Part shown: in pieces, positions 6,574 through 33,345 of the stretch | Numbering within the stretch: the stretch's first letter is position 1 | Layout of the letters: each line of letters begins with the position of its first letter | Source of the DNA: Verrucomicrobiia bacterium | Lineage (GTDB): Bacteria; Verrucomicrobiota; Verrucomicrobiia; Limisphaerales; UBA11358 | Reading direction: 5' to 3' | DNA: 64,000 nucleotides | Assembly: GCA_030038175.1 (NCBI GenBank) | Contig: JASHPN010000372.1 | Span: forward strand, 2,169-66,168 | Program-made: the position numbers and the translations under genes | Notes under the pieces: model-generated | Told to the model about the DNA's origin: nothing | Databases searched by the model: none | What the model saw: only the letters and a program-made list of their open reading frames with translations

Positions 6574-6674
6574 TCGAAAAGAGAATTTGACTCGATATTA
6601 AAGTGAAGTTGCCCGACTCTGTGCCGATGGCAGAGAACTTGCGCATGAACGAGCGAAGGCCCGGAACGCCGGCA

Positions 6675-7650: not shown

Positions 7651-7654
7651 AGGT

Positions 7655-12762: not shown

Positions 12763-12763
12763 A

Positions 12764-15121: not shown

Positions 15122-15167
15122 AAGAAATTGTTTATTTTAAGAAAGCAAGCCTTTATCTTCGGCTGCG

Positions 15168-16748: not shown

Positions 16749-16750
16749 AA

Positions 16751-18859
16751 TCACTTTATCTCCATCTCCCAAATGCCGCTCCAATGGTCCGGCGGCCGGG
16801 CCGAAAGTTCGGCGCAGCGGGCGGCCAGCGCGCTGCCGGGGCCGTCGGAAAATTCCCGGGCGAGCTTTTCAAATTCCGTCCGCGCTTCGGCAAATTTTCC
16901 GGAAAAATATATTTCGTACGCCGCCGGGTAACGCGCGCAAAGCTCCGCGTAGTTTGCCGGGGTACAGGGATTTTCGTATTCGAACAATTCCACCGGTTCG
17001 GTTTTGCCCTTGACGATCACGCGGTCCACCAGCCGCCGGTTGCCTGGCACGTTGAATTGAGCCAGGGCTTCGCGCGTCACCAGCATCCGCACCCCGTAAA
17101 ATTTCGTGAGCAACTCCACGCGCGCCGCCTCGTTCACCGTGTCGCCGACCAGGCCGTAATCGAGCCGCAATGCCGAACCTTTGTTGCCGATCAGCACCGG
17201 GCCGCGGTGCAATGCGACGCCGTAGCCGAACAACTTCCGAACCTCGGCCGGCAGGGTTGCGCGCAAATCCTCCATCGCGCGGATGAGATTCATCGCCGCG
17301 CGTCCGGCGCGATCGGCGGCGTCCGGCTGCTCTTGCGGCGCGCCCCAGTAGCTTAAAAACTGGTCGCCGAGAAAATGCTCCAGATTCCCCTCCTCGCTCA
17401 TGACGGCGCTGGTCTGCGCGTCAAAGACGCGGTTGAGCAAATCGAACATGCCTTGCGGCCCGAGCATTTCGGCCAGGGGCGTCGAATTCCGCAAGTCCGT
17501 CAGCAGCACAGTCACTTCCGCCCGGCGCGGTTGCATCGAGCCGGGATCCGCCAGCACCTCATCCAGCACGCGGGGTGAGAAATAAAGTCCCATGGTGTGC
17601 CGCAGCTTCATCCGCTCCAGCCGTTCGGTGACGAAATCATATCCCAGCCCGCCCACGCCGGCGAAGGCCAGAACCAGCAGAGGACTGACCACCGGGAAAA
17701 TCGCGTTCACGTGATTGAAGAAAAATTCCGCGGCATAGAAAATACCCGCGCCGGCCACCAATATCACCAGCAGCCGTCGGACCGGCGCCCGGATGAAGAG
17801 ACATAACACAGCTGCGAACAGGCCGGTCAGCACGATGATGGCGCCGCTGGCGAACGGCGGCGTTTCGCCGATAAATTCGCCATGCAGCGCCGCATTGAGG
17901 ACGTTCAGGTGAATTTCCGGCCCGGCCATTTCCTGGCCGAACGGCGTGCGATGAAAGTCCTGGAAAATATTGGCCGTCGGACCAACCAGAATGAGCTTGC
18001 CCGCAAAAAACTTTCCACTGCCATAAGTGCGTTCCCAAAGTTCCGGCGTCAACACATCACCCAATGGGATCACCCGCCACGTTCCAGGCGGGCCGGTGAA
18101 ACGGATTCGTTGCGGTTTCCCGACGGCCGGCATTTTTTTCCCCGCGCCGAATTTCTCCAGCGCCCGGGCGGCGAAAGATTCGATAACAGCGCCGGGCGCG
18201 GCGTTCACCGCATCACCCAACTCATGGTTGGCGACGCAGAAATGCGCGTGGCGGAATACATCATCGCCGTCCGGCCAGAGGTTGACAAAGCCAACGCGCG
18301 AATCCAGGGCGGCAGGGCGGTCGGGCGTATCGGGAATCAAATCTGCGGTTGGCGCGGCGAATTGTGCCGGTTGACCGCGGTCCGTTTCTTCGAGATTAAA
18401 CACACCGCCGATGACAAGGTGGCTTGAATATTCGTTCAGGGCGAGGCGCAATTCGCGATCGCCGTTCGCTTCGCTGGCGAAAACCAAATCAATCGCAATC
18501 GTTTTGGCGCCGGCATCGGAAAGTTGCCGGATGAGCCGCGCCCAGACGATTCGCGACCATGGGAATTGGCCCCGCAGCGCGGCGAGTACCGGGTCATCGG
18601 CTGCCTCGGCGGGGGAAATGGCGTCGCTGCAGCTGGGCCGGTCAATTCCAATCAGAACGAGGTTGGTGTCGGCCGGCGTGAAACGCCCGTGGCGCGCAAA
18701 AAAATCCTGGACGAAATTTTCCGCGGCGTTTAACGGCGCGGCCAATGGCGGCGGGCCGCGAAAATCCACTGCCAGCACGGCGAGCGTGACCAATACGCAG
18801 AAGCAGCCGAGGACGGCCGTGCGGCGCGGCGGGCGGCGTCTATTGAATTGTTCGGGCAT
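16751..18859 (-). CDS. CHASE2-domain class III adenylate/guanylate cyclase (paralog 1)
   Basis: 702 aa. N-terminal TM, ~300-aa extracytoplasmic CHASE2-like region (VLIGIDRPS, IAIDLVFASE, WPDGDDVFRH), three TM helices. Cyclase core VTVLLTDLRNSTPLAE...FLGDQFLSYWGAP...YGLVGDTVNEAARVE. Helical, TPR-like tail. Confidence 0.85.
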   Translation of the reverse strand: MPEQFNRRRPPRRTAVLGCFCVLVTLAVLAVDFRGPPPLAAPLNAAENFVQDFFARHGRFTPADTNLVLIGIDRPSCSDAISPAEAADDPVLAALRGQFPWSRIVWARLIRQLSDAGAKTIAIDLVFASEANGDRELRLALNEYSSHLVIGGVFNLEETDRGQPAQFAAPTADLIPDTPDRPAALDSRVGFVNLWPDGDDVFRHAHFCVANHELGDAVNAAPGAVIESFAARALEKFGAGKKMPAVGKPQRIRFTGPPGTWRVIPLGDVLTPELWERTYGSGKFFAGKLILVGPTANIFQDFHRTPFGQEMAGPEIHLNVLNAALHGEFIGETPPFASGAIIVLTGLFAAVLCLFIRAPVRRLLVILVAGAGIFYAAEFFFNHVNAIFPVVSPLLVLAFAGVGGLGYDFVTERLERMKLRHTMGLYFSPRVLDEVLADPGSMQPRRAEVTVLLTDLRNSTPLAEMLGPQGMFDLLNRVFDAQTSAVMSEEGNLEHFLGDQFLSYWGAPQEQPDAADRAGRAAMNLIRAMEDLRATLPAEVRKLFGYGVALHRGPVLIGNKGSALRLDYGLVGDTVNEAARVELLTKFYGVRMLVTREALAQFNVPGNRRLVDRVIVKGKTEPVELFEYENPCTPANYAELCARYPAAYEIYFSGKFAEARTEFEKLAREFSDGPGSALAARCAELSARPPDHWSGIWEMEIK

Positions 18860-18926
18860 GGCTTCCGGCAGGTTGACAACTCCCGACCGGTGGTGTAAAG
18901 ATGATTGAAATTAGTCGGAGCGCCGG

Positions 18927-19778
18927 ATGAAAACAATACTTCTTATCATTGGCCTGGCGTTGCTTTGCCAGTTTTCCGGCAGAACGGCCCCGCTCACCGA
19001 GAGCACGTTCACCGAAATTATCAACGATGTTCACACCGTCTCCCTGTCCGGAAATTCCGCCCCCGCCAGGGTGAACGAGATCCTCCAGTCGCCCGAACGC
19101 GTCCGAACCGGCCCGCAATCGCGCGCGGAGTTGGTCGCACCGGACCGGACGATTACGCGCGTCGGAGCGGACACGATTTTTTCCTTCGCCGACGCTGGAC
19201 GCACGTTAAACCTGGAACAAGGCAACGTGCTGTTTCACCCTCCGAAAGGAATGGGCGGCGGCACTATCCAATCCGCCGGCGCGGCGGCCGCCGTGCTGGG
19301 CACGACGATCATCGTATCTGCCACCGCAAACGGGGGATTCAAGGTGATTTTGCTCGAAGGCAAGGGCACGGTGACCCTGCCAAACGGAACATCCGCCACA
19401 TTGAACGCCGGCCAGATTGTGTTCGTGCTGCCGGGCGGAACGTTGAGTCCTGTGCTGAACATTAATTTAGGCAAACTTGTTGATGGTTCGCTGTTGGTCA
19501 ATGGTTTTCCGGATAAGCTTTCCTCGCTGGCGCTCATCGAGACCGCCATTCGCGCGCAAAACAAGTTGTTGAAATCGGGCAGGGCGGTGGACACCGGCCG
19601 GCCGGTGGACGCTTTTTTATATCCGCCGGGCAACGGCCTGGACACGATTGACCACGGCACTTACCAAACGGCCGCTCCTTCGCCGGTCACGCCACAGATT
19701 TCCCCAAAGGGGCCCACCGTCTCCGGCGCTCCAGGTGGACGTGGTATTGCGCCGCTTTCCCCGGGTGCGCCAGGTTAA
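18927..19778 (+). CDS. Secreted FecR-domain protein
   Basis: 283 aa with a signal peptide (MKTILLIIGLALLCQFSG). FecR-like beta-rich core (RVRTGPQSRAELVAPDRTITRVGADTIFSF...LEQGNVLF...GTTIIVSA...ILLEGKGTVTLPNG). Divergent from cyclase 1. Confidence 0.75.
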   Translation: MKTILLIIGLALLCQFSGRTAPLTESTFTEIINDVHTVSLSGNSAPARVNEILQSPERVRTGPQSRAELVAPDRTITRVGADTIFSFADAGRTLNLEQGNVLFHPPKGMGGGTIQSAGAAAAVLGTTIIVSATANGGFKVILLEGKGTVTLPNGTSATLNAGQIVFVLPGGTLSPVLNINLGKLVDGSLLVNGFPDKLSSLALIETAIRAQNKLLKSGRAVDTGRPVDAFLYPPGNGLDTIDHGTYQTAAPSPVTPQISPKGPTVSGAPGGRGIAPLSPGAPG

Positions 19779-19789
19779 AAATCGATTCC

Positions 19790-20815
19790 ATGCGAACCCT
19801 TATCATGTTCCTGACCGCCGGGGCAGTTGCTTTCATATTACCCGCCGCGCGCGCCCAGTTGCCCAATGCCAGCCAGCAGATACAATCGTTCGAGCAGCAC
19901 AATCAGCTTGAACAATCGGCGCAATCGCTCCTGGTTACCAATATTCCGTCGCTTTACGAATCCGAGACCAGCGACGTCGGGCCGCAGTCCGTGGTCCAAA
20001 TCAAACCGCGCCGGACCTGGATCGAAGCTTACGGCGACGAGCAGTATTTTTACACTGACAATATGTTTCTCGCCGACCACAACAAGCAGGGCGCCGACGT
20101 GCTGGTGAGCACCGTACAGGCGGCGCTGGCGCCGACGCCGTTTCAAATCGGCAACGGCCAGCTCGCGCCGCGCGTTGGTTACCAGCAGCAATGGTTCAAT
20201 TACGACCTTGCCCGTTCGGACACGGCGGAGGTCTTTAATCTCAACACCGGCACATTTCAAACGGTGGGGTTGGATACGTTCGACTTCAACGCTTCCACCG
20301 TTTTTGGCGATTTGACCTGGCGGCAGAACAACTGGGTGTTGACCCTCGGAACGGATTTTCGCCGGTTGCTGGATTCCGGCAGTTACGCCGAATTTTACCG
20401 CGAATACGTTCCGCGCTGGTCCATCATGCGCGAATTGCCACTGACAAAAACCACCGGCCTTTCCCTGGGCTACGAAGGCGACTATCGCGCGACCGAAACC
20501 CAAAATCCGCCAACCGGCTTCGGCGAAAATTACAACGATCGAACCGATCACAGCCTCGTCATCGTCGGCAGTTGGCAGTTGTGCCGTTACGCGGTGCTTC
20601 AGCCGTTTTACCAATTTGAATACTCGCACTACACGGTTGTCAGGCGCGACGATTTCCTGAATTCCTTCGGTTTAACCCTGTATTGCCCCCTCACAAAAAA
20701 TGTTGCCTTGCGCGCCTTCGTCGGTTACGACGATTTGAATACCGACGGATTCTTCGCCCAGGATTACCAGCAACTCAACGCCGGCGGCGGATTGAATCTA
20801 TTTATCCGGTTTTAG
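19790..20815 (+). CDS. Putative outer-membrane beta-barrel protein
   Basis: 341 aa with a signal peptide (FLTAGAVAFILPAARAQ). Alternating beta-strand pattern rich in Y/G/N. C-terminal ...GGGLNLFIRF with a terminal Phe. Lies 11 nt after the FecR gene. Confidence 0.55.
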   Translation: MRTLIMFLTAGAVAFILPAARAQLPNASQQIQSFEQHNQLEQSAQSLLVTNIPSLYESETSDVGPQSVVQIKPRRTWIEAYGDEQYFYTDNMFLADHNKQGADVLVSTVQAALAPTPFQIGNGQLAPRVGYQQQWFNYDLARSDTAEVFNLNTGTFQTVGLDTFDFNASTVFGDLTWRQNNWVLTLGTDFRRLLDSGSYAEFYREYVPRWSIMRELPLTKTTGLSLGYEGDYRATETQNPPTGFGENYNDRTDHSLVIVGSWQLCRYAVLQPFYQFEYSHYTVVRRDDFLNSFGLTLYCPLTKNVALRAFVGYDDLNTDGFFAQDYQQLNAGGGLNLFIRF

Positions 20816-20831
20816 AACTCTTTCCCGTTTG

Positions 20832-21045
20832 GAGCGTGGCTGTGCTGAAAGCCAGCCGCAGCACGTTCACAACTCATTGAACGTGTGGTCATACGCCATG
20901 GTTGAGGCCGGCAATGTGCTGCCAAGGAACCATTCACGCAACTGCCCTGGATTCAATGTGATATCCGAATTAGGTTCCTTGGCAACCAAAACGAAATCTT
21001 AATTTCGTTGGAGTCTGCGGCTGGTCTTGAACACAGCCGCGCGCC
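20832..21045. repeat. MITE-like non-coding element with inverted termini (long variant of the GAGCGYGGCTGTG...CACAGYCGCGC family)
   Basis: Left end GAGCGTGGCTGTGCTGAAAGCCAGCCGCAGCAC. Right end CTGCGGCTGGTCTTGAACACAGCCGCGCGCC is its imperfect reverse complement. Internal 12-bp inverted repeat TGCCAAGGAACC...GGTTCCTTGGCA. Sits between convergent gene ends. Confidence 0.7.
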
Positions 21046-21059
21046 GGATTAGCACCGCG

Positions 21060-22625
21060 CTACCGCTCCGCAACCTGCGGGTGATGGTAGATGTGGCATT
21101 CGGCGCAGGAACTGGCCACGCCGCCGCGCGGGCTGTGGCATTGCGCGCAGGTTTCTTTCGGCGGCAAAAGGATGTCCGCGTTGTCCTGGCTGTGGACCGC
21201 GTCGTGGCATTGTGCGCAGGCGATGTTCGCGTGCGCGGCGTGGCTGAAGTTTGCCTCCGGCAGCCAGCGCTCGCGCATCACCGGCGGGGTGACTTCCGGC
21301 AAGCCGGCGCCCGGCGCTTTTACCTCATGGCAATACGCACAGCCGGGAAATACCGCCCGCGTCGCGCCACTCAACGTTCCGATTTGCGCCGCCGGCCCGA
21401 ACGTCGCGGTGCTGAAGAAAACGCGCTGTTCCAATTCCTCGCCGCTGCCGAACTGCGACCGCAGGCCGGCCAGCTTTTGCCGGACGAAATCATTTTCATC
21501 GGCCACGTTCTCCGCCGCGGCGAGTTTTGTGTATTGCTCCGGCAGGCTGTGCAAAAACGCCGATACAAAATCCGCGCTGCCGTGCGGGAGCCGCAACTCC
21601 GGCGTCTGCGGATCGAATTGCAGCGAATGGCAGATGCGGCAATCTTTCTCAAACGAAACCGGTTGCATGTAAGCGCCCGCGGCGTCCGGCTGATGGCAAA
21701 AGGCGCAATCCAATTTTTTACCGCCGGGCAGCGTCGGAATCGTCGCGCCCGTGAGGTGTAATTGGTGGTTGAATTTCAGCGTGTCCGGATTGCGCCATTT
21801 TTCCGTGATGAAAGCGAATTGCGGATGGTCCGTGGCAAAATGATGGACGAGCGGAACGGTCCCCGACCCCGCCATTTTTGCCGCGTCGCCGTGGCAGAAA
21901 TCGCAATTCGCGTCGGTCGTTGCCGCTATTTTGATTCCCTGGTGCTCGGCATGGCAAAACGCGCAGGAAATTTGCGGCGCACCCGGTTGATGAAAATTTT
22001 GCCCGGCGTGGCATTTCAGGCACGCGGCATCCAGGACCGTCGGCATCGCCCGTTGGGCCGTCACGAGTTTTTTGAACCCGAGGATTCCCGGGTCGGCGCG
22101 CAACGCGGCGGTGACGATTCCGTTGGGCCCGGAATTGCCGGCCGCGTGGCAGGCGTTGCAATTTGGCGCCAGGTGATTCGCCGCCGCCAGCGCCATAAAG
22201 GCCGCCCCGGAGTGCGCCAGTGAAAGCCGGCCGGGATTGATAAATTTGTCGCGCCACGGCGGATTGCCCAGTAAAACCAAAAGCGCGGCGCAGGAAATCG
22301 CGACGACCGCAAGGGTTATTCTTTGGCGAACCAGACGCAGCGTCGGCGTCGGCGAACATTTTGCAATCGGGCGGCAGCAGCTTCCGTCCGGCAACGGACC
22401 GGATTCACACGCGCCACCGGAGCGGGTACAGCGCCACCGGCCTTTCGTCTCGCCCGGTTTTGTCTCAAGCGCCGGCCGGCATTCCGCCGTGGCGCGGCAG
22501 CGGCCTCTTTCATCCGGACCGAGCCGGCACGGATTGCCTTCGCCGGCATGGCCGCAGATCCAGTTTTGATTCGGCCGCGCATAATTTTGCCCTTCAAAAT
22601 CCGGTGCTGGCGGCCGCTCGCTCAT
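21060..22625 (-). CDS. Membrane-anchored decahaem c-type cytochrome with Cys-rich N-terminal domain
   Basis: Ten CxxCH motifs: CNACH, CLKCH, CAFCH, CDFCH, CAFCH, CRICH, CAYCH, CAQCH, CAQCH, CAECH. The preferred start is the ATG at 22625 (MSERPP...), which forms an ATGA overlap with the upstream stop; the track start at 22718 would overlap the upstream gene by 97 nt. Nine Cys precede a single TM (ITLAVVAISCAALLVLLG). Confidence 0.88.
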   Translation of the reverse strand: MSERPPAPDFEGQNYARPNQNWICGHAGEGNPCRLGPDERGRCRATAECRPALETKPGETKGRWRCTRSGGACESGPLPDGSCCRPIAKCSPTPTLRLVRQRITLAVVAISCAALLVLLGNPPWRDKFINPGRLSLAHSGAAFMALAAANHLAPNCNACHAAGNSGPNGIVTAALRADPGILGFKKLVTAQRAMPTVLDAACLKCHAGQNFHQPGAPQISCAFCHAEHQGIKIAATTDANCDFCHGDAAKMAGSGTVPLVHHFATDHPQFAFITEKWRNPDTLKFNHQLHLTGATIPTLPGGKKLDCAFCHQPDAAGAYMQPVSFEKDCRICHSLQFDPQTPELRLPHGSADFVSAFLHSLPEQYTKLAAAENVADENDFVRQKLAGLRSQFGSGEELEQRVFFSTATFGPAAQIGTLSGATRAVFPGCAYCHEVKAPGAGLPEVTPPVMRERWLPEANFSHAAHANIACAQCHDAVHSQDNADILLPPKETCAQCHSPRGGVASSCAECHIYHHPQVAER

Positions 22626-23440
22626 CGGGCGCCTCCCGAAAATCCAAAAACCAGGGCGATGTGCAACGCCGTGAAAATGAGCAGGCCGTAAGTGAGCGGG
22701 ATGTGGACGAACAGCCACAACTTGAGCGCAAGCTGGAGCGCGCGATGATAGTCGAGGTCGTCCTTTTGCCGGACGAGGGCGGCGACCTTTTCAAGCGTGG
22801 CGCGTTCGCCGTCGCTGCCGGTGCGCCGCAAATCGTCCAGGGTGGCGATCAGCGCGTTGAGCGGACGCCGCGATTCCGCCAGATGCAGCCAGGAATTCTT
22901 TGGTCCGTCGAAAAATCGGGCGAGCCGGCGCGCGTAAAATTCCGCGATGACAGGCGATTGCGCCTCCCCTCCGAGCGCCAGTTTTTCCGCCTCGGCCCGG
23001 AGCGCGTGGCGCAACGCCGGGATTTTTTCGTAAATCACCTCGCCGCCGCGCGTCGCGAGCCGGCCGGGGAGGATGCGGCTGAAAATCAAACCGACCACGC
23101 CGCTGCCGGCCACAAGCACGAACAGCCACGCCAGCGTGACTTCAAACCATCCGCGTGGCAGGCGAAAATTCAGGTGAATCAAAAACAGCAACACGGTGAA
23201 AAAGCCGAGGTAGATGTGAATTTGCAGCCACGTTTCAGAATTTCCCAGCGGCAAAAATGGCAGCTTTTTCCGCGCGTTATACAGTGCCAGCAGCAACATC
23301 GCCGCGAGCAGGATCCAGCCCGTGAGAAACGCGTAATCCGGAAGCGCGCGGTTGAATTTCGCGTGCAGCCACAACGTCGCCGCCGTTGCGACCAGCAACG
23401 CGAACAGGCCGGAGAAAAATTGCCGCCGGAAGCGTTTCAT
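22622..23440 (-). CDS. 5-TM membrane protein, candidate di-haem b-type transmembrane electron carrier
   Basis: Preferred start is the ATG at 23440 (MKRFRRQFFSGLF...), ATGA-overlapping the upstream stop. About five hydrophobic helices. Two of them carry H-x13-H: HIYLGFFTVLLFLIH and HIPLTYGLLIFTALH. A ~110-aa helical soluble insert lies between TM4 and TM5. I do not recognise a family. Confidence 0.6.
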   Translation of the reverse strand: MKRFRRQFFSGLFALLVATAATLWLHAKFNRALPDYAFLTGWILLAAMLLLALYNARKKLPFLPLGNSETWLQIHIYLGFFTVLLFLIHLNFRLPRGWFEVTLAWLFVLVAGSGVVGLIFSRILPGRLATRGGEVIYEKIPALRHALRAEAEKLALGGEAQSPVIAEFYARRLARFFDGPKNSWLHLAESRRPLNALIATLDDLRRTGSDGERATLEKVAALVRQKDDLDYHRALQLALKLWLFVHIPLTYGLLIFTALHIALVFGFSGGAR

Positions 23441-25161
23441 TTTTGCAGCCAGCGCGTGAGCGCGTCCAGGTTGTTCAAGTTGGTCCGCGCGAGCGCGCCG
23501 TGCGGGCAGGCGCGCTGGCAGGCCGGACCGCTCCAATTTTCCACGCACAAATCGCATTTCGTCGCCTTCACAATCGGCTTCGATTCCTTGTCCACCAGGA
23601 TCTCGCCATCACCGTCGCGGATTTCCACCATCCGGATGGCATCGTAGGGACAATTGTTGGCGCACGACTTGCACCCGATGCACGTCGCGGGATTGACGAC
23701 TACCTGGCCGCCGAACGACTCGCGATGGATCGCGCCGGTCGGGCAGCCAATCATGCAGACCGGGTCGGCGCAGTGCATGCAGGCATTCGCAATCATCAGC
23801 CGCCCGGCGCTCGGGCCGTGCCGCAGGAAACGTGGATTGTTGTCGTGCGTCGAGGCGCAGGCACGAACGCAATCGTCACAGCGTGTGCAGCGATCAAGGT
23901 CAATCACCATCGTGGCCGTGCCGTTGAAAAAGCGGTTCTCGGTCAGAAATTCCAGGACTTCCGCGCCGATTTTTTCGCGCACCGCGGTTCCCGGCGCGCT
24001 CGAATCCAAATCTTCCGCCGCCGTTTCGGCCAAAGGCGGCAGCTCGTTTTTTGGCAGCGACGGCAAAACGATTTCCTCCATCACGCGCGTCGGCACGATG
24101 AGCAAATGCGTGTAACCGATGGCGCGGAGGGAAAATTGAAAATTCACCGGTGCTTCTTTGCATCGCCAGTTGTGGGCAATTTCGTTCAGGCCGAAAATCC
24201 GGCCGGCGCCGAGGTAATTCAGCGTGCGCTCACCGCCCCCGGTTTTCTGGCTCACGCGCGCGAAGCCGGCCCGCAACAGCACGATGCCGTTCGGGTAATC
24301 GCCTTCCGTGAGGATGGCGGGTTCCTTTTCCGGACGGACGCCGCCGGCTTGCACGAGACGTTTGTATTCGCCGGACCAGTCATAGTCGCCAAACGTCGCA
24401 AACTCGACGGCCTCGGCAACGCGATCGAGTTGCTCCTTGCCCAAATTTTTGAATATCGGCGTCGCGCGGAGATACGATGCCAGCGCGCGTTCGCGGTAAA
24501 TGCGGTTGATGTGCGTACGCAACGCGTCGTCGTTCTTCATCAAATCCCGCAGGCCCTGCCAGCGGATTTCGAGCAATTCCGCGTCGTCGCTGTCGGCGAA
24601 AATGGTCGAAGTGCGCGGCATCCGGCTCAGCGCGGCAATCTCGCCAAAAAAATCGCCCGCCGTCATCTGTTCCGTGCGGTGCTGGTTCAAAACGCGCGGC
24701 AAATCTTGAAGAAAGACGTGAACTTCGTTTTCATCCTGTCGCGAGCCGACGCCGGCATCTTGTTTCAACTGGGCGGGGGAGAAGCTTTCCGGCGGACGTG
24801 AACCGTTCCAAAACTGGGCAAGCGTGCGCCAAATTCCCTTTTTGCCGGGCGAATGCCGGCCAAGCAGCGACGGTGGCAAATCCGGTTGCAACACGACGCT
24901 CGCGGCGCCGTTCAAAATCAGAAATGCCGACGTGCCGTAATCGCCCTGGCGCACAATGATTTCACCTTTGCGGAACCGGAGCAGGCGCGTGTCGTGGCGC
25001 AGAATTCCGCGGAGCGGTATGCGTTTGGGAAACCTCTCCGCGCTCATGTCGCAAAACGGCGGGATGGCGAGCAGCCGGTCCGCGTCGGCGTCCGTCATTT
25101 CCGGGTCGAAGGCGGCGTCCCAGCGCTGCGGTCGTTCGAGGATGGTCGGGGCGGCGGACAT
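23437..25161 (-). CDS. Cyclic-nucleotide-binding domain protein fused to a DmsB/NrfC-like 4x[4Fe-4S] ferredoxin module
   Basis: 574 aa. cNMP-binding-type segments (LRFRKGEIIVRQGDYGTSAFLILNG; GDFFGEIAALSRMPRTSTI; LGAGRIFGLNEIA). C-terminal Cys clusters CTRCDDCVRAC, CMHCADPVCMIGCP, CIGCKSCANNCP, CDLCVENWSGPACQRACP. No twin-arginine signal at the N-terminus. Confidence 0.85.
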   Translation of the reverse strand: MSAAPTILERPQRWDAAFDPEMTDADADRLLAIPPFCDMSAERFPKRIPLRGILRHDTRLLRFRKGEIIVRQGDYGTSAFLILNGAASVVLQPDLPPSLLGRHSPGKKGIWRTLAQFWNGSRPPESFSPAQLKQDAGVGSRQDENEVHVFLQDLPRVLNQHRTEQMTAGDFFGEIAALSRMPRTSTIFADSDDAELLEIRWQGLRDLMKNDDALRTHINRIYRERALASYLRATPIFKNLGKEQLDRVAEAVEFATFGDYDWSGEYKRLVQAGGVRPEKEPAILTEGDYPNGIVLLRAGFARVSQKTGGGERTLNYLGAGRIFGLNEIAHNWRCKEAPVNFQFSLRAIGYTHLLIVPTRVMEEIVLPSLPKNELPPLAETAAEDLDSSAPGTAVREKIGAEVLEFLTENRFFNGTATMVIDLDRCTRCDDCVRACASTHDNNPRFLRHGPSAGRLMIANACMHCADPVCMIGCPTGAIHRESFGGQVVVNPATCIGCKSCANNCPYDAIRMVEIRDGDGEILVDKESKPIVKATKCDLCVENWSGPACQRACPHGALARTNLNNLDALTRWLQK

Positions 25162-25163
25162 TT

Positions 25164-26471: not shown

Positions 26472-26500
26472 GCCGCCACTCCATTAACGAATTTATCGTC

Positions 26501-27715
26501 GTGAGTAAAACAATTTATGGTTCCCTGACCGCCGGCCTGATTTTCTGCCTGGCGGCGCGCGCGGCGGACACGCCGGGGAAATTTCTCGGCGCCAATTCCT
26601 GCGCCAGCTCCAGTTGTCACGGCGGCGGTGGCGCGAATCAGAACCAGTTCCTCATCTGGTCGCTCAAAGATTTTCACTCGCAGCGGCCGTTCGCCACGCT
26701 GGCGACCGCGCGCGCCAAACAAATCGCCGTTGCGGCCGGCATCATGGATCCGATCACGGACGAACGCTGCACGGCCTGTCACACACCGTTGCGGGACGTG
26801 CCGGAGGATTTGCGCGGCAGCGATTTTAGGATTAGCGAAGGTGTTTCCTGCGAAAGCTGTCATGGCCCGGCGGGAAGTTGGATTCGGTCACATACGCGGA
26901 CCGATTATACGCGCGCCGAGCGCACGGCGGCCGGAATGCGCGCCCTGGAAAATCTTTACGTCCGCGCCAACGCGTGCGTCGCGTGCCACCAGGTCGTCGC
27001 CGAACCATTGCTGAAGGCCGGCCACCCGGAATTGATTTTTGAATTGGACGGCCAGAGCGTGGCCGAACCGAAACATTGGACCGTGGCCAGAAACGGCATC
27101 GGCCCCCAGGCGTGGTTCGTCGGCCAGGCGGTCGCATTGCGGGAAACAAGCTGGGAACTGGCACGCGAAAAATCACCGTCGGAAAATGAAATGAACCGTT
27201 GGGGCGGCCTGGTTTGGCTGTTGATCCGCGCGGACAAAGTTGACCCTGATTTGCCGAAGCCGCCGGACGTCACATTCCGTCCAAACCCGGAAAACTTTGA
27301 ACTGGTCCAAAAATGGAGCGACGGTCTGGCCCGCGCCGCGGCGGAGATTTCATGGACGAACACGATGACCCAAACCGCCCTGCTGGCGCTGTCTGGCACG
27401 GCGGCTGATTTCAGGGAGGCGGTCCCGCAAGCAGTCAAGGCTCGCCGCGCCGAACGCCTGGTGCTGGCGCTGGACCGGCTCGTCATGTCGCTGCCGCAAA
27501 TCCGGCGGAGCGCGCCGCTTAATGGCGCGCTGGACAGGTTGTTCAGCGACGCACAGTCGCTGCCGGATTTCAAACCGGCTGATTTTGCCGCGCATCTTGA
27601 AGAGTTTCAGAAACAGGTACAATTGGCGGCGGTGGACAACCGACCAGCCCGCACCACGCATTTGCCATGGTGTCAAACCGCTGTCCGGCAGGATCGGAAA
27701 ACTATTTTTCAGTAA
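26501..27715 (+). CDS. Secreted multihaem (about four haems) c-type cytochrome with C-terminal non-haem domain
   Basis: The track ORF starts at 26207, but that stretch overlaps the divergent reductase gene. The in-frame GTG at 26501 gives a signal peptide, (V/M)SKTIYGSLTAGLIFCLAARAADTPG. Haem motifs CTACH, CESCH, CVACH plus an atypical CASSSCH (CX4CH). The exact start is uncertain. Confidence 0.72.
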   Translation: MSKTIYGSLTAGLIFCLAARAADTPGKFLGANSCASSSCHGGGGANQNQFLIWSLKDFHSQRPFATLATARAKQIAVAAGIMDPITDERCTACHTPLRDVPEDLRGSDFRISEGVSCESCHGPAGSWIRSHTRTDYTRAERTAAGMRALENLYVRANACVACHQVVAEPLLKAGHPELIFELDGQSVAEPKHWTVARNGIGPQAWFVGQAVALRETSWELAREKSPSENEMNRWGGLVWLLIRADKVDPDLPKPPDVTFRPNPENFELVQKWSDGLARAAAEISWTNTMTQTALLALSGTAADFREAVPQAVKARRAERLVLALDRLVMSLPQIRRSAPLNGALDRLFSDAQSLPDFKPADFAAHLEEFQKQVQLAAVDNRPARTTHLPWCQTAVRQDRKTIFQ

Positions 27716-29711
27716 GGTCAATTTCACCCATCCACTCGGCATTGGGCGGGTGAATGGCGAATTGCCGAATTTGCTCCAGATAAAATTTGCTGGGACCGTC
27801 GTTGGGCCGGAGTTCAAGAACTTTCGTGAAAGCCGCTCGCGCTTCGTCAAATTCCTTGTGCATAAATCTGCTCAACCCGGTGATGAAGGTTTTCCTCCAT
27901 TCGGCGGTGGCCTGTTCCTCCTCCGGCAGGCCGACCATCTCATGCACCTCGACCACCTGGTTAAACCCCTTAAACTTGAAATAGCCGGCCAACCGGGAAA
28001 CGATCTTGCCCTCGCTGGATTTCTGGATCTCGCGCGTGGCCAGAATGTTTGTGCCAAGTTGTTTGTTCAAGCCTTCCAGGCGGGAAGCCAGATTGACGCT
28101 TTCGCCGATTGCGGTGTAGTCAAAATGGGTTGAGCTTCCGATATTGCCCACGCACACCGCGCCGGTATGCAGACCCACGCGAGTATATAACGGAAGATGC
28201 CAACTGGCCTCTTCAAATCTTATCAACGCCCGGTTTAGCAGGATGGCAGCCTTGCAGGCGCGATACTGGTGGTCGGGCTGCTCTTGCGGGGCGTTCCAGA
28301 TCGCAAAAATCGCATCGCCAATCAGGTTCATCACCGTTCCGCGCGTTTCATGCACGCAACCGATGGCCGTTTCGTAGTAGGCATTCATCAGCTTGACGAG
28401 ATCCTCGGTAATCATACGTTCGGATATTTTTGAAAAGCCCGCGATATCGCTGAACAGGATGCTGACGGTTTTCAATTCGGCGCCCGGTTTCAATAAGTCA
28501 GGTTGCCTCAGGATTTGTTTCACCGACTCCGGCGAGAGATACAATGCCAATGAGGTTTCCAGCACCTGGGTCTGGACATAGGACTTGACGGAACTGAAAA
28601 GATAGGCCCAGCTCAGCCCGATCGGGATTTGGATTGCGACAATGATCATCCACGACATCCAGACATGAAATCGGTCGGCCATGATGATGGCCAGGGTCGT
28701 CACGATCACGGCGGCCGCGGCGGCCAGTCCGGTGGCCGCGACCGGACGGTAACAACTCAAGCCATAACCAAGAAGAATCCCGGCAAAAATAAAAAGCATG
28801 GTTTGCAGACCGTCGGGCAGCCGGGTCATCCAGTCCTGGCGGACAAGGTTGGCAAAGGTGAGGGCGTGGATTTCCACACCGCAAGGAAAATACCCCGTCA
28901 GCCACGTCCATGGACTGCGGAATTGCTCTTTTTCCTGGCCGCTATAACCGGCCACCTCGCCGGAACCGACGAAAACCACCTTGTCTTTAAGTGAAATATC
29001 CGCGGGCAATTGTTTTCCGGAAATGACGTCGCAATACGAAATAGCCGGAAACGGCGCGCTGGAATAATAATTCAGCCAACGCTCGCGCAGGCGGGTCTCC
29101 GGCCGTTGCGTGACCTCGGCTCCGGAAATTTCCGCGGCCTTCCAGGCCAGGCTGGGAACCTGGCCGGTGCCCGGATATTGAATGCGCGCGGCGAAATCTG
29201 TGTCCCGGTTAACCAGCGCCAATCCCCAGCCCGCCGCCACATTTCGAAATAGATCAATCGGGGGCCAGACAGTCGCGCTGTTGTATCCCAGGTGAGTGTC
29301 CTGGTAAAACTGCGCGCCTAATACCACGCGGCCTTGATTTTGAATCGCCCGGGCAAATTCCTGGTCGGCGGCGGTTATCGGGCCGGAATCGTCAATGAAC
29401 AGAATGTCAAAAACAATCAATTTGACTCCGGCCTGCTTGAGCCGGTTCACCAGTTGGGCGTGCAGCCCCCGGTCGAAGGACGCCGGATCCTGATTCAGTT
29501 GGCGATATGACTTCTCGTCCAGATAAATAATCACCACGTCATTGATTTTGGCTTCGGGGCGGAAGAGGAAGGGAAGGTCAAAACTCCAATCGCGCAGTCC
29601 CTTGCCGAAGGGAAACCAGAATAAGGCCAGCCCGGTGAGCGTCGCCAGCAACGCCCCCACGCCGCCGCCAAACCACGGCTGATGCAAACGTTTTTTGAAG
29701 CCGGCGTCCAC
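27702..29711 (-). CDS. CHASE2-domain class III adenylate/guanylate cyclase (paralog 2)
   Basis: 669 aa with the same architecture as 16751-18859: N-terminal TM, CHASE2-like region (VVIIYLDEKSY, IVFDILFIDDSG), three TM helices. Cyclase core VSILFSDIAGFSKISE...LIGDAIFAIWNAP...YTAIGESVNLASRLE. TPR-like tail (ARAAFTKVLELRPNDGPSKFY). Confidence 0.85.
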   Translation of the reverse strand: MDAGFKKRLHQPWFGGGVGALLATLTGLALFWFPFGKGLRDWSFDLPFLFRPEAKINDVVIIYLDEKSYRQLNQDPASFDRGLHAQLVNRLKQAGVKLIVFDILFIDDSGPITAADQEFARAIQNQGRVVLGAQFYQDTHLGYNSATVWPPIDLFRNVAAGWGLALVNRDTDFAARIQYPGTGQVPSLAWKAAEISGAEVTQRPETRLRERWLNYYSSAPFPAISYCDVISGKQLPADISLKDKVVFVGSGEVAGYSGQEKEQFRSPWTWLTGYFPCGVEIHALTFANLVRQDWMTRLPDGLQTMLFIFAGILLGYGLSCYRPVAATGLAAAAAVIVTTLAIIMADRFHVWMSWMIIVAIQIPIGLSWAYLFSSVKSYVQTQVLETSLALYLSPESVKQILRQPDLLKPGAELKTVSILFSDIAGFSKISERMITEDLVKLMNAYYETAIGCVHETRGTVMNLIGDAIFAIWNAPQEQPDHQYRACKAAILLNRALIRFEEASWHLPLYTRVGLHTGAVCVGNIGSSTHFDYTAIGESVNLASRLEGLNKQLGTNILATREIQKSSEGKIVSRLAGYFKFKGFNQVVEVHEMVGLPEEEQATAEWRKTFITGLSRFMHKEFDEARAAFTKVLELRPNDGPSKFYLEQIRQFAIHPPNAEWMGEIDLTEK

Positions 29712-29886
29712 CGGGCGAAGTTACGGCATCAGACACGCGGTGTGAAGCAAAACCCGTTTGCTGAGGCTGGGAGCCGCTGGCCGGCCCCGAACCATTGTTC
29801 TTGCTTTAGTTTCAAAATTACATATAGGTGTTCCCGTAATTCCCTTGCGGCCAACCCGGCTATATCCAGGCGTATGGCTTCCGCCC

Positions 29887-32800
29887 TTGAATGCGAAAAC
29901 AATTTTCGCCGCCGGCCTGTTTTGCCTGCTGGCCTGCCGGCTGCCGGCTCAAACGGCTTCACCGGCCCCTGGCCCCATGACCAATTATCTGGCCGTGATC
30001 CAGGGCGATGTGGAAGTCAGCCTCGCCGGATCGGGGCCCTGGGTTCCCGCCAAATTGAACCAGACGTTGCGGCCGGGCGACCGCGTGCGAACCGGCGAGC
30101 GCAGCCGGGCCGATATTTATCTGGCCGGCGGGATGGTCATCCAAAAGAGCGAGTTTTCTGAAATTGAAATCCCGCCAACCGGCAACGTTGTTTTCCGGCG
30201 GGGCATTTTCAAAATCTTCGACCGGGAGCGGGACCATCGTTTGGAGTTGCGCATGCCCACGGCCACGGCCGCGATCCGCGGCACCGATTTTCTCGTGCGC
30301 GTGGGGGACGATGGCACTTCTGAAATCATCGTTTTGGATGGCAGCGTCGCGCTCAAAAACGCCCACGGTGAAGTGCTTTTGGCCAATAACGAACGCGGCC
30401 TGGCCGAACCCGGACAACCGCCGCGGAAATCTGCCGTCATTGAAGCGGTTAATGATTTGATTCAATGGAATCTTTACTACCCGGCCGTGGTGGACGTGGA
30501 CACGCTTGGCTTTACCGCCGCGGAGCAACAGGCCCTGGCCCCGTCCCTGGATGAATATCGCGCCGGCGATCTGGTTCGTGCGTCCGATGCCTACGACTGG
30601 AAGCGCGCCAACCTTTCCGATGCCGAAACCATTTACCGCGCCGAACTTCTGTTAAGCCTGGGCCAGGTGGACGAAGCCAAAAAACGGCTCGACACGGCGC
30701 CTTCCCTGCCCGCGGCGTCCGCCTTGTTGAAATTGATCAAGGCGGTCAAGTTCGAACGGACCACCGACACACACCCCAATGCCACTGCGGCGGAATGGCT
30801 TGCGGAATCGTATTATCAGCAATCGCTCGCCAATCTTCCGGCGGCCCGATTGGCAGCGCGGCGGGCGGCCGACCTGGCGCCTGGCTTTGGTTTCGCGTGG
30901 GAGCGGGTCGCGGAATTGGAGTTCTGTTTTGGCCGATCGCATGAAGCGTTGATCGCGCTGGACAAGAGCCTGGAATTGTCGCCGCGAAATGCGCAGGCGC
31001 TTGCGCTCAAAGGATTTCTGCTGGCAGCGCAAAATAACATCCGGGATGCCACCCGGTGGTTTGATCGCGCCATTGCCACCGACGGGGCGCTGGGAAACGC
31101 ATGGCTCGGCCGCGGTTTGTGCCGCATCCACACGGGCCGCCGCTCCGAAGGGCTGCGCGATTTGCTGATGGCGGCGGCGCTTGAGCCGCAGCGTTCGCTC
31201 CTGCGGAGTTATCTGGCTAAAGGATTTTCTGACGCGGGAGAAAACGTTTTGGCCGACAAGGAAATCAGACTCGCTTTGCAGCTTGACCCCGGCGACCCGA
31301 CGGGCTGGCTTTATTCTGCCTTGATTGAGCAACAGCAAAATCAGGTGAATCCAGCCATCACCGACATGGAAAAGTCCGAATCGCTCAACGACAACCGGCA
31401 GATATTTCGCTCGAAGATGCTGCTGGACCAGGACAATGCCGTTCGCAGCGTCAATCTGGCCACAATGTATGACGATGCCGACATGTATGATGTGGGGGTG
31501 CGGGAGGCAGCCAGGGCCGTGACTTACGATTATGACAACGCTTCCGCGCATTTGTTTCTTTCCGACAGCTACAACGCCTTACGCGACCCGACGGGGTTTA
31601 ATCTGCGCTACGATACAGCCTGGTTCAACGAATTGCTGCTGGCCAATCTGCTGGCCCCCGTCGGCGCGGACCGGCTCTCTCAGACTCTTTCCTACCAGGA
31701 ATATTCCAAATTATTCGAGTCGGACGGACCAGGGTTTGCCGATGAAATTTCCTGGCGCAGCGACGGCGAGCTTAACGAAATGGCCGGGCAATACGGGACT
31801 TACAAAAACACGTCGTGGGCGGCGGATTTGGACTACCAGCACAACAACGGCGTGCGCGCAAACAACCAGCTCGACGACACTTCCGGGGATGTAACGGTCA
31901 AGCAACAACTCACTCCGTCGGACACCGTCCTGGGGATCGCGCAATTTGAAAATTATCATTCGGGCGACAATTTCCAATACTACAATTTCTACACTGCCTA
32001 CCGGACAAATTATGAATATGGGGAACATCAGGATCCGACGTTCGTTGGGGGATACCAGCACGAATGGTCGCCCGGCAACCGCACATTGGTGCTGGGAGGA
32101 CGACTGGAGGACGAGCAACACTTTTCACAGAGTCAGGCGCCGCAACTGGCGGTGTACCTGAATCCGTCAGGCACAATTGCCGACGTCTTTAATCAACCTT
32201 TTGATGTCGCGCTTCAGGACGAACTGCTCATTTATACCGCTGAATTTTGCCAAATTGTTCAGCAGGATAGATATACGCTGATTGTCGGCGGGCGCTGGCA
32301 AGGCGGGCAATTTACGTATTCCGATTCATTAACCCCCAACCCGCCGTCACCGCCCCTTTTTGACCCGGCTTCGGGGTCGTTTTCCGCGCCGTTCCAACGG
32401 CTCGATGGTTACGGTTATCTCACGGTCAAGCCAGTTGACAAACTGTGGCTTACCGGCGGCTTCGCGTACGATGCCATGACCTATCCCGCCAACTTCCGCA
32501 ATGTGCCTGACAGCGGAGGCACGGACGAGCGGCAACTGCCGGAACCCAAAGCCGCCATTGTCTGGAGTCCGCTCAAACAGGTGACGCTGCGTGGCGTCTA
32601 TGCGCGTTCGCTGGGCGGCGTAAGCCTGGATGACAGTTACCGGCTCGAACCGACGGAACTCGCCGGTTTTGTGCAGACTTTTCGTTCCGTGATTCCCGAA
32701 TCCATCGTCGGCAGCGTTTCGGCGGAGGACGTGCAATTGGAGGGCCTGGCGCTGGACCTCAAATTCAATCACGGCACGTTTGCCGGCCTCGAGGCGCAAA

Positions 32801-33345
32801 ACCTGGATTCGACGGTTCGGCAAACCATTGGCGATTTCCTGTTCCCTAATACACCGGTGTTCCAACCGTTCGCGCCGTCCACGACACCCCAAAGTTTTAA
32901 CTACTATGAGCAATCCTTTTCCGCCAGCATCAATCAATTGCTGCCGGACGGATTTGTGGCGGGCCTCAGTTACAATTTTACCCATTCAGAACTCAAAACC
33001 ACCTATCCGCAAATTCCCGCTGCCTTCCTGCCCTCGCAGGACCAATGGGCCTGCCTGCACCAGATTGGCGCCTACCTGCTTTTCAACCATCCTTCCGGGT
33101 TGTTTGCCCAATTCGACGCGCACGGCTACTTGCAACAAAACTATGGTTACTCACCCGCGGAGCCAGGCAACGATTTTGTCCAGTTGGATTTAGAGGGTGG
33201 CTGGCGGTTTTTTCAAAGGCGCGCCGAATTGCTTGTGGGAATCCTGAATCTCACCGGCCAAAATTACAGCCTCAATCCGCTGAATGTGTACTCTGAACTG
33301 CCGCGCAAATGTGTGTTCTATGGACAATTTAGTTTTGAGTTTTGA
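29887..33345 (+). CDS. Fusion protein: FecR domain + TPR repeats + C-terminal outer-membrane beta-barrel-like domain
   Basis: The track ORF begins at 29758. The in-frame TTG at 29887 gives a clean signal peptide, (M)NAKTIFAAGLFCLLACRLPAQ; the start remains uncertain. FecR-like core (RPGDRVRTGERSRADIYL...AAIRGTDFLVRV...IVLDGSVALKN). TPR-like segment (ALDKSLELSPRNAQALALKGFLL, RLALQLDPGDPTGWLYSAL). ~600-aa Y/G/N-rich C-terminal region ending ...VFYGQFSFEF. Confidence 0.75.
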   Translation: MNAKTIFAAGLFCLLACRLPAQTASPAPGPMTNYLAVIQGDVEVSLAGSGPWVPAKLNQTLRPGDRVRTGERSRADIYLAGGMVIQKSEFSEIEIPPTGNVVFRRGIFKIFDRERDHRLELRMPTATAAIRGTDFLVRVGDDGTSEIIVLDGSVALKNAHGEVLLANNERGLAEPGQPPRKSAVIEAVNDLIQWNLYYPAVVDVDTLGFTAAEQQALAPSLDEYRAGDLVRASDAYDWKRANLSDAETIYRAELLLSLGQVDEAKKRLDTAPSLPAASALLKLIKAVKFERTTDTHPNATAAEWLAESYYQQSLANLPAARLAARRAADLAPGFGFAWERVAELEFCFGRSHEALIALDKSLELSPRNAQALALKGFLLAAQNNIRDATRWFDRAIATDGALGNAWLGRGLCRIHTGRRSEGLRDLLMAAALEPQRSLLRSYLAKGFSDAGENVLADKEIRLALQLDPGDPTGWLYSALIEQQQNQVNPAITDMEKSESLNDNRQIFRSKMLLDQDNAVRSVNLATMYDDADMYDVGVREAARAVTYDYDNASAHLFLSDSYNALRDPTGFNLRYDTAWFNELLLANLLAPVGADRLSQTLSYQEYSKLFESDGPGFADEISWRSDGELNEMAGQYGTYKNTSWAADLDYQHNNGVRANNQLDDTSGDVTVKQQLTPSDTVLGIAQFENYHSGDNFQYYNFYTAYRTNYEYGEHQDPTFVGGYQHEWSPGNRTLVLGGRLEDEQHFSQSQAPQLAVYLNPSGTIADVFNQPFDVALQDELLIYTAEFCQIVQQDRYTLIVGGRWQGGQFTYSDSLTPNPPSPPLFDPASGSFSAPFQRLDGYGYLTVKPVDKLWLTGGFAYDAMTYPANFRNVPDSGGTDERQLPEPKAAIVWSPLKQVTLRGVYARSLGGVSLDDSYRLEPTELAGFVQTFRSVIPESIVGSVSAEDVQLEGLALDLKFNHGTFAGLEAQNLDSTVRQTIGDFLFPNTPVFQPFAPSTTPQSFNYYEQSFSASINQLLPDGFVAGLSYNFTHSELKTTYPQIPAAFLPSQDQWACLHQIGAYLLFNHPSGLFAQFDAHGYLQQNYGYSPAEPGNDFVQLDLEGGWRFFQRRAELLVGILNLTGQNYSLNPLNVYSELPRKCVFYGQFSFEF

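Follow-up and report, generated by a model that had tools for sequence, protein, structure and literature searches.

CHASE2 cyclase, FecR and barrel modules beside a ptd-type redox cluster of Verrucomicrobiota: one conserved companion and one probable bystander

Do sensory nucleotide cyclases stand beside a multihaem redox system by accident, or is the electron flow of that system placed under the control of a second messenger? The question is raised by a 64,000-nucleotide stretch of contig JASHPN010000372.1 (assembly GCA_030038175.1) from a Verrucomicrobiia bacterium, hereafter called the window and taken at its full length, in which an operon for a putative electron-transfer complex is bracketed by two sets of genes. 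Each set encodes a class III nucleotide cyclase with a CHASE2 sensor domain, a FecR domain and an outer-membrane beta-barrel; they are called here module 1 (cyc1, FecR1 and bar1) and module 2 (cyc2 and a FecR-TPR-barrel fusion). A sequence-only reading of this DNA described them as paralogous, identically arranged modules of cyclic AMP (cAMP) producers, which make up one signalling-plus-respiration unit with the genes between them. The physical part of this description is sound: all open reading frames (ORFs) are present with the domains claimed, as seen from the ORF list and Pfam, both cyclase/FecR pairs are divergent, the redox operon with ptdC, E, F and G as well as the tetrahaem gene ptdD lies between the modules, and structure models give a barrel both for bar1 and for the C-terminus of the fusion. 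The window was chosen for its bracketing feature, and hence the bracketing as such cannot be called significant. Our analysis favours, somewhat above even confidence, the view that module 1 is functionally tied to the ptd cluster and module 2 is incidental. Of the single unit once proposed, the tie of module 1 to the ptd genes is thus upheld by comparative genomics, and the bracketed unit of two modules is left unsupported.

Module 1 and the ptd-type redox cluster

The redox operon is a ptd-type cluster, in which ptdC, ptdE, ptdF and ptdG are accompanied by a divergent ptdD. The genes ptdABCDEFG were described as a putative porin-cytochrome cluster of marine and saline taxa with a completely unknown function, where PtdE is a cyclic nucleotide monophosphate (cNMP)-binding protein carrying a pair of 4Fe-4S clusters, PtdD is a tetrahaem and PtdG a decahaem protein (bioRxiv 10.1101/2023.11.21.568154); the cluster is also reported in Nitrospirales and Gammaproteobacteria. 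The equivalence was judged by architecture, with no comparison to the published ptd sequences, and at this level the PtdC, D, E, F and G components of the window match the described ones in kind, domain content and haem counts agreeing one for one.

Among these components, PtdC has the Pfam domains FAD_binding_6, NAD_binding_1 and Fer2, matches the flavohaemoprotein reductase module of NCBIfam at 273 bits and shows a transmembrane (TM) helix at residues 11-29 by hydropathy. PtdE matches the Pfam family cNMP_binding (5.5e-24) in three stretches together with Fer4 families, and no other protein with a cNMP domain was found in the window. Five hydrophobic helices by hydropathy and a weak Pfam match to DUF4405 characterize PtdF, and the 10 CXXCH motifs of PtdG are joined by Pfam matches to cytochrome c7/c3/MtrC-like families. 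For PtdD, which matches Cytochrome_C554, the four haem motifs expected of a tetrahaem protein are confirmed in the form of three CXXCH and one CX4CH.

A scan with one genome per species gave 80 loci encoding PtdE relatives at 49-84% identity, which come from Verrucomicrobiota, Planctomycetota and some Alphaproteobacteria; many relatives of PtdE are more than 80% identical. By these homologues the window is assigned to a Verrucomicrobiae bacterium of Limisphaerales type. The genes ptdC, E, F, G and D stay together in nearly all of these loci (67-80 of 80 by gene), ptdG being kept in 72, ptdF in 76 and ptdD in 67. The first cNMP domain of PtdE contains the phosphate-binding cassette FGEIAALSRMPRTST, the part which in CAP-family domains touches ribose and phosphate, and this cassette is intact in 74 of the 80 orthologues with the pattern FGE..AL...R[TS][AS][TS]. 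Since it is so widely kept, nucleotide binding is probably an ancestral property of the Ptd complex, as far as a conserved motif can indicate. A variation of another kind is seen in the alphaproteobacterial PtdC, which has an N-terminal FHA domain (L071 7867-9909, Hwanghaeella grinnelliae).

Module 1 is a split form, in which cyc1 goes with a FecR protein and a barrel that are both small. The cyclase has Pfam matches to CHASE2 (1.3e-36) and Guanylate_cyc (1.2e-10) and aligns with CyaK of Sinorhizobium meliloti at 27% identity over 624 amino acids (aa; 2e-40); according to hydropathy, both cyc1 and cyc2 begin with a single TM helix, which is followed by a periplasmic stretch of about 300 residues, three more TM helices and the cyclase domain in the cytoplasm. 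FecR1 is recognised by Pfam FecR (5e-9) and has a hydrophobic N-terminus with no further TM helix. For bar1 there is no Pfam or NCBIfam match, and none of the module proteins is named by NCBIfam at the curated cut-off. It has a signal peptide and the C-terminus ...LFIRF, and its AlphaFold2 model, built with 38 homologues, shows an all-beta barrel of the outer-membrane kind, with about 14-16 strands and a predicted local distance difference test score (pLDDT) of 85-92 in the barrel, for which the best PDB matches by Foldseek are porins and autotransporter barrels. The bar1 family has 377 members and no Pfam match; among the matches listed, all are unnamed or called 'hypothetical protein'.

The window proteins and custom hidden Markov models (CHASE2, cyclase, FecR, bar1 and cNMP) were mapped onto the 80 ptd loci, and a locus was taken as informative if it extends at least 3 kilobases (kb) past ptdG (n=55) or past ptdD/ptdC (n=49), which amounts to 399 and 386 kb of flank, respectively. 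A class III cyclase occurs past ptdG in 23 of the 55 informative species loci, with 17 of 20 among close relatives (Limisphaerales), 0 of 6 among intermediate and 6 of 29 among distant ones. On the ptdD/ptdC side no cyclase was found in any of the 49 informative loci, that is, in 386 kb of flank, so that the cyclase on the ptdD side of the window is unusual. The order in Limisphaerales is the same as in the window, namely ptdG, bar1 with FecR, the divergent cyclase and then an HbpS-like gene, and where the module is missing, ptdG directly abuts the HbpS-like gene (e.g. L038 and L045). Of 20 close relatives, 18 have a FecR1 orthologue, and a second copy is present in many relatives. The flank on the ptdD side varies even among close relatives, while the module 1 flank is conserved.

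Outside Limisphaerales, the module 1 site is occupied in three loci of Akkermansiaceae (L042, L044 and L062) by a CHASE2 cyclase of a sister clade together with FecR and a bar1-like gene; the 313-aa product of the latter in L042 matches the bar1 profile along its full length, yet weakly (E 4.5e-4, probability 33%), and is called 'bar1-like' only. A 451-aa neighbour in L050 was considered as a bar1 analogue and rejected. Two more cyclases with different architectures occupy the place after ptdG: a Tll0287-like sensor cyclase follows it directly in another member of Akkermansiaceae (L049 14280-16250), and an FHA-domain cyclase follows it by 11 bp in Tepidisphaeraceae (L075 10308-11486). The ptd cluster seems to attract varied regulatory inputs.

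Six homologues of bar1 were also looked up independently of the operon, and five of them adjoin ptd genes (L163, L164, L166, L173 and L175). In one of these loci (L173, contig_36184, 9102-20871), FecR and bar1 stand on the ptdG side, and a second FecR, a cyc1-type cyclase (55% identical) and a gene for an ATP-binding cassette (ABC) protein with a cNMP domain stand on the ptdD side. In Opitutales (L080), a bar1 homologue (hhalign 99.5%) follows ptdG in the same direction, at a distance of 25 bp, with no cyclase detected in the locus. bar1 is thus tied to the ptd cluster more tightly than the cyclase is. On the grounds of the 17 of 20 close relatives and the five of six bar1 homologues, comparative genomics bears out a conserved linkage for module 1, and as judged from these genomes module 1 truly accompanies the ptd cluster, being conserved yet dispensable. 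Some side observations concern the surroundings of bar1: an IS200-type Y1 transposase gene lies between bar1 and ptdG in L166 (11187-11633), and a tyrosine integrase gene lies right after the bar1 homologue in L080 (14791-15723). In L173, the relocated cyclase occupies the position held in the window by the unrelated module 2, and the operon is there bracketed by one split module.

Regarding the outer-membrane end of the complex, no equivalent of the pentahaem PtdA with its beta-sandwich or of the porin PtdB, both known from description alone, was recognised in the window. The verrucomicrobial window differs from the published cluster in having instead a 785-aa secreted protein, with a proline-rich N-terminus and the end ...VTFTY, a 1280-aa LVIVD-repeat protein with 10 CXXCH motifs and an NHL-repeat protein; the three genes are co-directional (7655-15121, minus strand). 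In 29 of 80 loci the 785-aa gene keeps synteny with ptd genes, standing now on one flank of the operon and now on the other. Together, the three proteins may form the outer-membrane or extracellular part of the Ptd system in Verrucomicrobiota, replacing PtdA and PtdB. No support was obtained for bar1 as the PtdB porin: the candidate PtdB of Hwanghaeella (L071, 519 aa) has no profile similarity to bar1. The candidate PtdB of L080 has no similarity to the 785-aa protein. On the far side of module 1, a 526-aa protein with HbpS-like domains (haem-degrading/GlcG-like) is a constant neighbour, and it may belong to the redox system.

Module 2 and its relation to module 1

Module 2 belongs to a kind already known from rhizobia. 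In S. meliloti, the 1200-aa protein NsrA, which has a FecR domain and a beta-barrel at residues 600-1200, is encoded immediately upstream of cyaK (PMC7529298), and it is required for signalling through the CHASE2 cyclases CyaK, CyaD1 and CyaD2 (PMC7529298, PMC13001267). The architecture of NsrA given here follows PMC7529298 and the annotation of the pSymB record; a search of plasmid proteins led to this Sinorhizobium plasmid, where a homologous 1200-aa FecR-domain protein annotated as nsrA is directly followed by cyaK. The cyclase cyc2 has Pfam matches to CHASE2 (1.7e-33) and Guanylate_cyc (1.5e-19) with TPR at the C-terminus, and aligns with CyaK at 29% identity over 562 aa (2e-46); both window cyclases are full-length homologues of CyaK. 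The fusion, with a predicted signal peptide, shows FecR, TPR and a weak TonB_dep_Rec_b-barrel match in Pfam, that is, the same FecR-TPR-barrel order and a similar length as NsrA, and it is collinear with a Sinorhizobium NsrA paralogue in the FecR (31%, 7e-18) and TPR (24%, 3e-7) parts. The barrel similarity is weak, NsrA itself matching the barrel profile of the fusion family with an hhalign E of 1.4e-3. The fusion therefore has the NsrA-like layout of about 1200 aa, secreted, with FecR, a helical/TPR centre and a C-terminal barrel of about 600 aa, into which the separate FecR1 and bar1 genes with their small unrelated barrel do not fit. Collinearity with NsrA together with homology to CyaK makes module 2 an NsrA/CyaK-type pair of a known stand-alone kind. 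It differs from the S. meliloti pair in that the window genes are divergent and the rhizobial ones co-directional, and in that NsrA senses a plant or ribosomal protein and signals via Clr with no redox-operon link.

In the AlphaFold2 model of the C-terminal 613 aa of the fusion (pLDDT 86), more than 20 strands are predicted to form a large barrel, which superposes on OprC and FecA with a Foldseek TM-score of about 0.57. No Pfam Plug domain was detected, a search for a TonB box not being included, and FecR and TPR precede the barrel; according to the model, the fusion barrel resembles a TonB-dependent transporter, yet it is plug-less and falls outside that class, in which a 22-strand barrel is closed by an N-terminal plug with a TonB box. 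The likeness to FecA-FecR-FecI lies in the FecR domain, the FecA-like barrel of the fusion and a signal passing from the outer membrane to an inner-membrane transducer. The difference is that FecR is here fused to the barrel instead of being a membrane-spanning anti-sigma factor, and that the output is a nucleotide cyclase. No sigma factor gene stands beside either module in the window, and FecR1 and the fusion carry only a signal peptide; neither module has the FecIRA-type layout of an extracytoplasmic function (ECF) sigma factor with a membrane-spanning FecR anti-sigma factor.

When metagenomes were scanned with the barrel profile of the fusion, 80 loci were obtained, and 61 of them have FecR, TPR and barrel in one protein. 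Among the 29 family loci with at least 2.5 kb on both sides, 15 have a CHASE2 gene as direct neighbour, mostly immediately downstream and co-directional, and 4 more have one within 7 kb. The closest relatives of the fusion, in L083 (2876-3499) and L168 (9064-9687), are divergent from an ECF sigma factor gene, not from a CHASE2 cyclase gene, and the same receptor type thus seems to serve different inner transducers. As for the ptd genes, they were found at none of 82 FecR-TPR-barrel family loci, and neither a fusion relative nor a cyc2-type cyclase was found at any of the 80 ptd loci. The linkage which the bracketing suggested is hence not conserved for module 2; its position beside ptdD is specific to this lineage. 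Module 2 is a widespread stand-alone unit that probably stands there incidentally, and the two-sided bracketing, with no conservation beyond this genome, is probably incidental as well.

The two modules were said to be paralogous and identically arranged, which does not agree with the comparison of their proteins. By BLASTP, cyc1 and cyc2 share 28% identity (1e-33) over the cyclase and C-terminal part only and their CHASE2 domains are left unaligned, each cyclase aligning with CyaK along the full length. The two FecR domains share 27% identity (9e-7). Between the barrels no homology is found by BLASTP, and the profile-profile probability is 0.4%. In a rough neighbour-joining tree of 46 CHASE2 cyclases, cyc1 belongs to a clade linked to the ptd operon and cyc2 to a clade linked to FecR-TPR-barrel genes, and for a recent duplication of the module blastn found only short chance matches of DNA. 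Partial protein alignment, separate clades and no DNA similarity together indicate two old sub-lineages and not duplicates; as far as these sequences tell, the modules are related at the level of domain families only, with unrelated barrels.

The signalling proposal and its alternatives

In the alignment of 46 CHASE2 cyclases, including cyc1 and cyc2, the two metal-binding aspartates, the transition-state asparagine and the arginine are invariant in all 46. The catalytic domains of cyc1 and cyc2 match solved class III adenylate cyclases best, and the alignments agree on the catalytic residues; to judge from these residues, both are probably active enzymes. A lysine with aspartate or threonine is the adenine-specifying pair typical of adenylate cyclases. 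The purine-specifying pair is mostly Lys/Thr in the fusion-linked cyclases; cyc1 has His/Gly there, as have 19 of 22 operon-linked cyclases, and cyc2 has Asn/Thr, being the only cyclase of the 46 with asparagine at the lysine position. With these non-canonical pairs the name of cAMP producers is not established for cyc1 and cyc2, and the product of the cyc1 clade may be another nucleotide than cAMP.

The gene content, folds and topology, the intact catalytic and cNMP motifs and the linkage of module 1 described above are the ground for a mechanism. By domain content, electrons would pass from PtdC, with its NAD(P)H, FAD and 2Fe-2S sites, to PtdE, then to PtdF and further to the periplasmic PtdG and PtdD. 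By analogy with NsrA/CyaK and FecA/FecR, bar1 and FecR1 might register a surface or periplasmic condition and relay the cue to the periplasmic CHASE2 domain of cyc1, which would make a cyclic nucleotide in the cytoplasm; the nucleotide would then bind the conserved cassette of PtdE and adjust how electrons pass through the complex. Inferred in this scheme are the way in which the signal runs, the role of PtdE as its receiver and the nature of the nucleotide. Because the PtdE cassette is intact in 74 of 80 orthologues, cyclic-nucleotide control of the Ptd complex by the module 1 cyclase is plausible on the basis of sequence. That the nucleotide gates PtdE directly is a tentative step, to which we give clearly less than even weight, and the same caution holds for the picture of Ptd as a second-messenger-gated electron conduit, in which the nucleotide of the cyclase, maybe not cAMP, would switch the flow across the membrane on or off post-translationally via PtdE when a cue is perceived at the surface.

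Several facts weigh against a functional tie between module 1 and the ptd cluster or against PtdE as its receiver. The product of cyc1 is not callable as cAMP from sequence, given the non-canonical base-specifying pair. The module is dispensable, being absent in most distant loci, in all six intermediate ones and in two close relatives (L009 and L035). One of the six bar1 homologues belongs to a module with a cyclase, two FecR genes and bar1 and with no ptd genes within 10 kb (L174, Ga0214172_1000010, 6044-11026), and another locus has FecR and bar1 with no cyclase (L164). The linkage counts are not phylogenetically independent and probably go back to few events: a single clade of CHASE2 cyclases, which underwent losses and was relocated once, and two cyclases of other types. 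Moreover, other proteins with cNMP domains could be the real targets of the cyclase. An ABC exporter with a C-terminal cNMP domain is encoded beside cyc1-clade cyclases in L005 (19212-21494), L019 (10823-13072), L050 (16439-18679), where it comes after the cyc1 orthologue, and L173 (from about 20902), and in the three Akkermansiaceae loci named above an MscS-type channel and a small protein (in L042 at 14217-15725 and 19577-20179) both have cNMP domains. None of these ABC-cNMP, MscS-cNMP or small cNMP receivers is present in the window. The module of L174, which may be a relocated or mobile copy, has a 197-aa cNMP-domain protein and MobC/NikA-like genes as neighbours.

These facts leave room for other explanations. 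FecR1 and bar1 might be parts of the Ptd machinery itself, as a channel or docking site whose state the cyclase reads in order to signal to other cNMP receivers, an explanation we hold unlikely. The closer tie of bar1 than of the cyclase speaks for it, as do the bar1 gene of L080 in the operon with no cyclase detected, the FecR and bar1 pair without cyclase in L164, the pair beside ptdG in L173 with the cyclase elsewhere, and the ABC and MscS cNMP proteins adjoining cyclases. Yet about 14-16 strands make bar1 small for a porin enclosing a cytochrome, in the window bar1 belongs to one transcription unit with FecR1 and converges on ptdG, and upstream there are genes for another candidate outer-membrane protein and for a decahaem protein; this explanation also leaves the kept cNMP cassette of PtdE without a reason.

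Inherited synteny without coupling, where the modules are self-contained with outputs acting elsewhere and the arrangement arose once in an ancestor, is in our view improbable. Few independent events are needed, since the operon-linked CHASE2 cyclases are one clade; the module is missing from many ptd loci and occurs without ptd genes in L174, and other cNMP-domain proteins adjoin the cyclase in relatives. What mere inheritance does not readily account for is the difference between the two flanks in close relatives, the cyclase of L173 remaining adjacent to the operon after a rearrangement, the cyclases of different architecture which took the same spot after ptdG in L049 and L075, and the side bias of 23 versus 0 at an operon that encodes a conserved cNMP receiver.

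Still less probable is an action through transcription only, by a CRP/Clr-type regulator encoded elsewhere, with the cNMP domains of PtdE being vestigial or binding something else. The precedent is that S. meliloti CyaD1, CyaD2 and CyaK signal through the transcription factor Clr (PMC5498481, PMC13001267). Searching for cNMP domains gave no CRP-type gene in the window or in the flanks of the 80 loci, the extra matches being transporter/channel fusions and small cNMP proteins, and the cassette of PtdE is strongly conserved. Finally, a single unit with two paralogous cAMP sensors feeding PtdE is very doubtful: the 3' overlap of cyc2 with ptdD, PtdE as the only cNMP-domain protein in the window and a CHASE2 cyclase on the ptdD side of L173 are consistent with it, but that cyclase is of the cyc1 type and not of the cyc2 type, relatives of module 2 and ptd genes do not meet at any of the 80 ptd or 82 family loci, ECF sigma factors are the partners of the closest fusion relatives, the two barrels lack homology and the cyclases fall into different clades.

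Layout of the window and place among known systems

The coordinates of the two modules, the ptd-type genes and their neighbours are collected in Table 1.

Table 1. Features of the module and ptd region, in window coordinates
Feature	Position	Strand	Evidence
cyc1, module 1 CHASE2-domain class III nucleotide cyclase, 702 aa	16751..18859	-	Pfam CHASE2 and Guanylate_cyc
FecR1, secreted FecR-domain protein, 283 aa, divergent from cyc1	18927..19778	+	Pfam FecR
bar1, small outer-membrane beta-barrel, 341 aa	19790..20815	+	AlphaFold2 model, Foldseek
ptdG-like periplasmic decahaem cytochrome c, 521 aa	21060..22625	-	10 CXXCH, Pfam
ptdF-like integral membrane protein, 272 aa	22622..23440	-	hydropathy, weak DUF4405
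ptdE-like cytoplasmic subunit, cNMP and 4Fe-4S dicluster domains, 574 aa	23437..25161	-	Pfam
ptdC-like FAD/NAD(P) oxidoreductase with 2Fe-2S domain and N-terminal TM helix, 435 aa	25164..26471	-	Pfam, NCBIfam
ptdD-like periplasmic tetrahaem cytochrome (c554-like), divergent from ptdC	26498..27715	+	Pfam, haem motifs
cyc2, CyaK-type CHASE2-domain class III cyclase with C-terminal TPR, 669 aa	27702..29711	-	Pfam
NsrA-like outer-membrane receptor (FecR-TPR-barrel fusion), 1152 aa	29887..33345	+	Pfam, AlphaFold2
526-aa neighbour on the outer side of module 1, with two HbpS-like domains	15168..16748	+	Pfam
Accessory genes: 785-aa secreted protein, 1280-aa LVIVD-repeat decahaem protein, NHL-repeat protein	7655..15121	-	Pfam

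The divergent partners are separated by spacers of 67 bp (cyc1/FecR1) and 175 bp (cyc2/fusion), and bar1 starts 12 bp past FecR1; with the called start at 19805 it has 336 aa instead of 341. The ORF of ptdG reaches 22718, the likely ATG at 22625 giving 521 aa, to be compared with relatives called at 521-525 aa, and that of ptdF reaches 23557 with a likely start at 23440 giving 272 aa. The genes ptdD and cyc2 are convergent and their 3' ends overlap by 14 bp (27702-27715), which leaves no space for a terminator between them. Farther away in the window are two very large divergent ORFs of 2474 and 2479 aa (47101-54525, minus strand; 55723-63162, plus strand).

Comparable pairings of CHASE2 and FecR have been reported in several systems. 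In S. meliloti, cyaD1-smc02177-smc02178 puts a CHASE2 adenylate cyclase beside a separate secreted FecR-domain protein (PMC5498481), and a cluster of Campylobacterota with a CHASE2 cyclase, a phosphodiesterase, FecR and a TPR protein likely forms a single pathway (PMC9239204). In neither of them was a bar1-type barrel, a multihaem or ptd gene or a cNMP iron-sulfur protein reported, and the phosphodiesterase of Campylobacterota has no counterpart seen in the window. A Burkholderia operon encodes a LysM-FecR protein with a CHASE2 histidine kinase (PMC5192318), which is similar in pairing the gene of a periplasmic FecR-domain protein with that of a CHASE2 sensor and different in its output by histidine kinase and response regulator, in the LysM domain and in having no barrel and no redox genes; it indicates that the FecR-CHASE2 pairing is general. 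Compared with NsrA-CyaK, module 1 stands apart by its separate FecR and barrel genes and its unrelated barrel, and the preprint on the ptd cluster mentions no cyclases. Our literature search found no paper joining CHASE2/FecR modules with multihaem or ptd genes, and a search for CHASE2 together with LipL45 found nothing.

The building blocks are therefore of known kinds, namely NsrA/CyaK-type modules and the ptd cluster. What appears to be new is the conserved linkage of a module with ptd genes, the split form with FecR and a small barrel, and the cyclase clade with the His/Gly pair. The record on this locus is corrected in that the modules are of different sub-lineages with unrelated barrels and the bracketing is probably incidental. 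As the ptd cluster is widespread in Verrucomicrobiota and Planctomycetota and occurs in some Alphaproteobacteria, the neighbouring sensor-cyclase and the intact PtdE cassette give a concrete handle on the regulation of the Ptd complex. If the proposal is true, module 1 would be the first identified regulator of an uncharacterised and widespread multihaem system, and NsrA/CyaK-type signalling would reach beyond rhizobial symbiosis to the direct control of respiratory or extracellular electron transfer.

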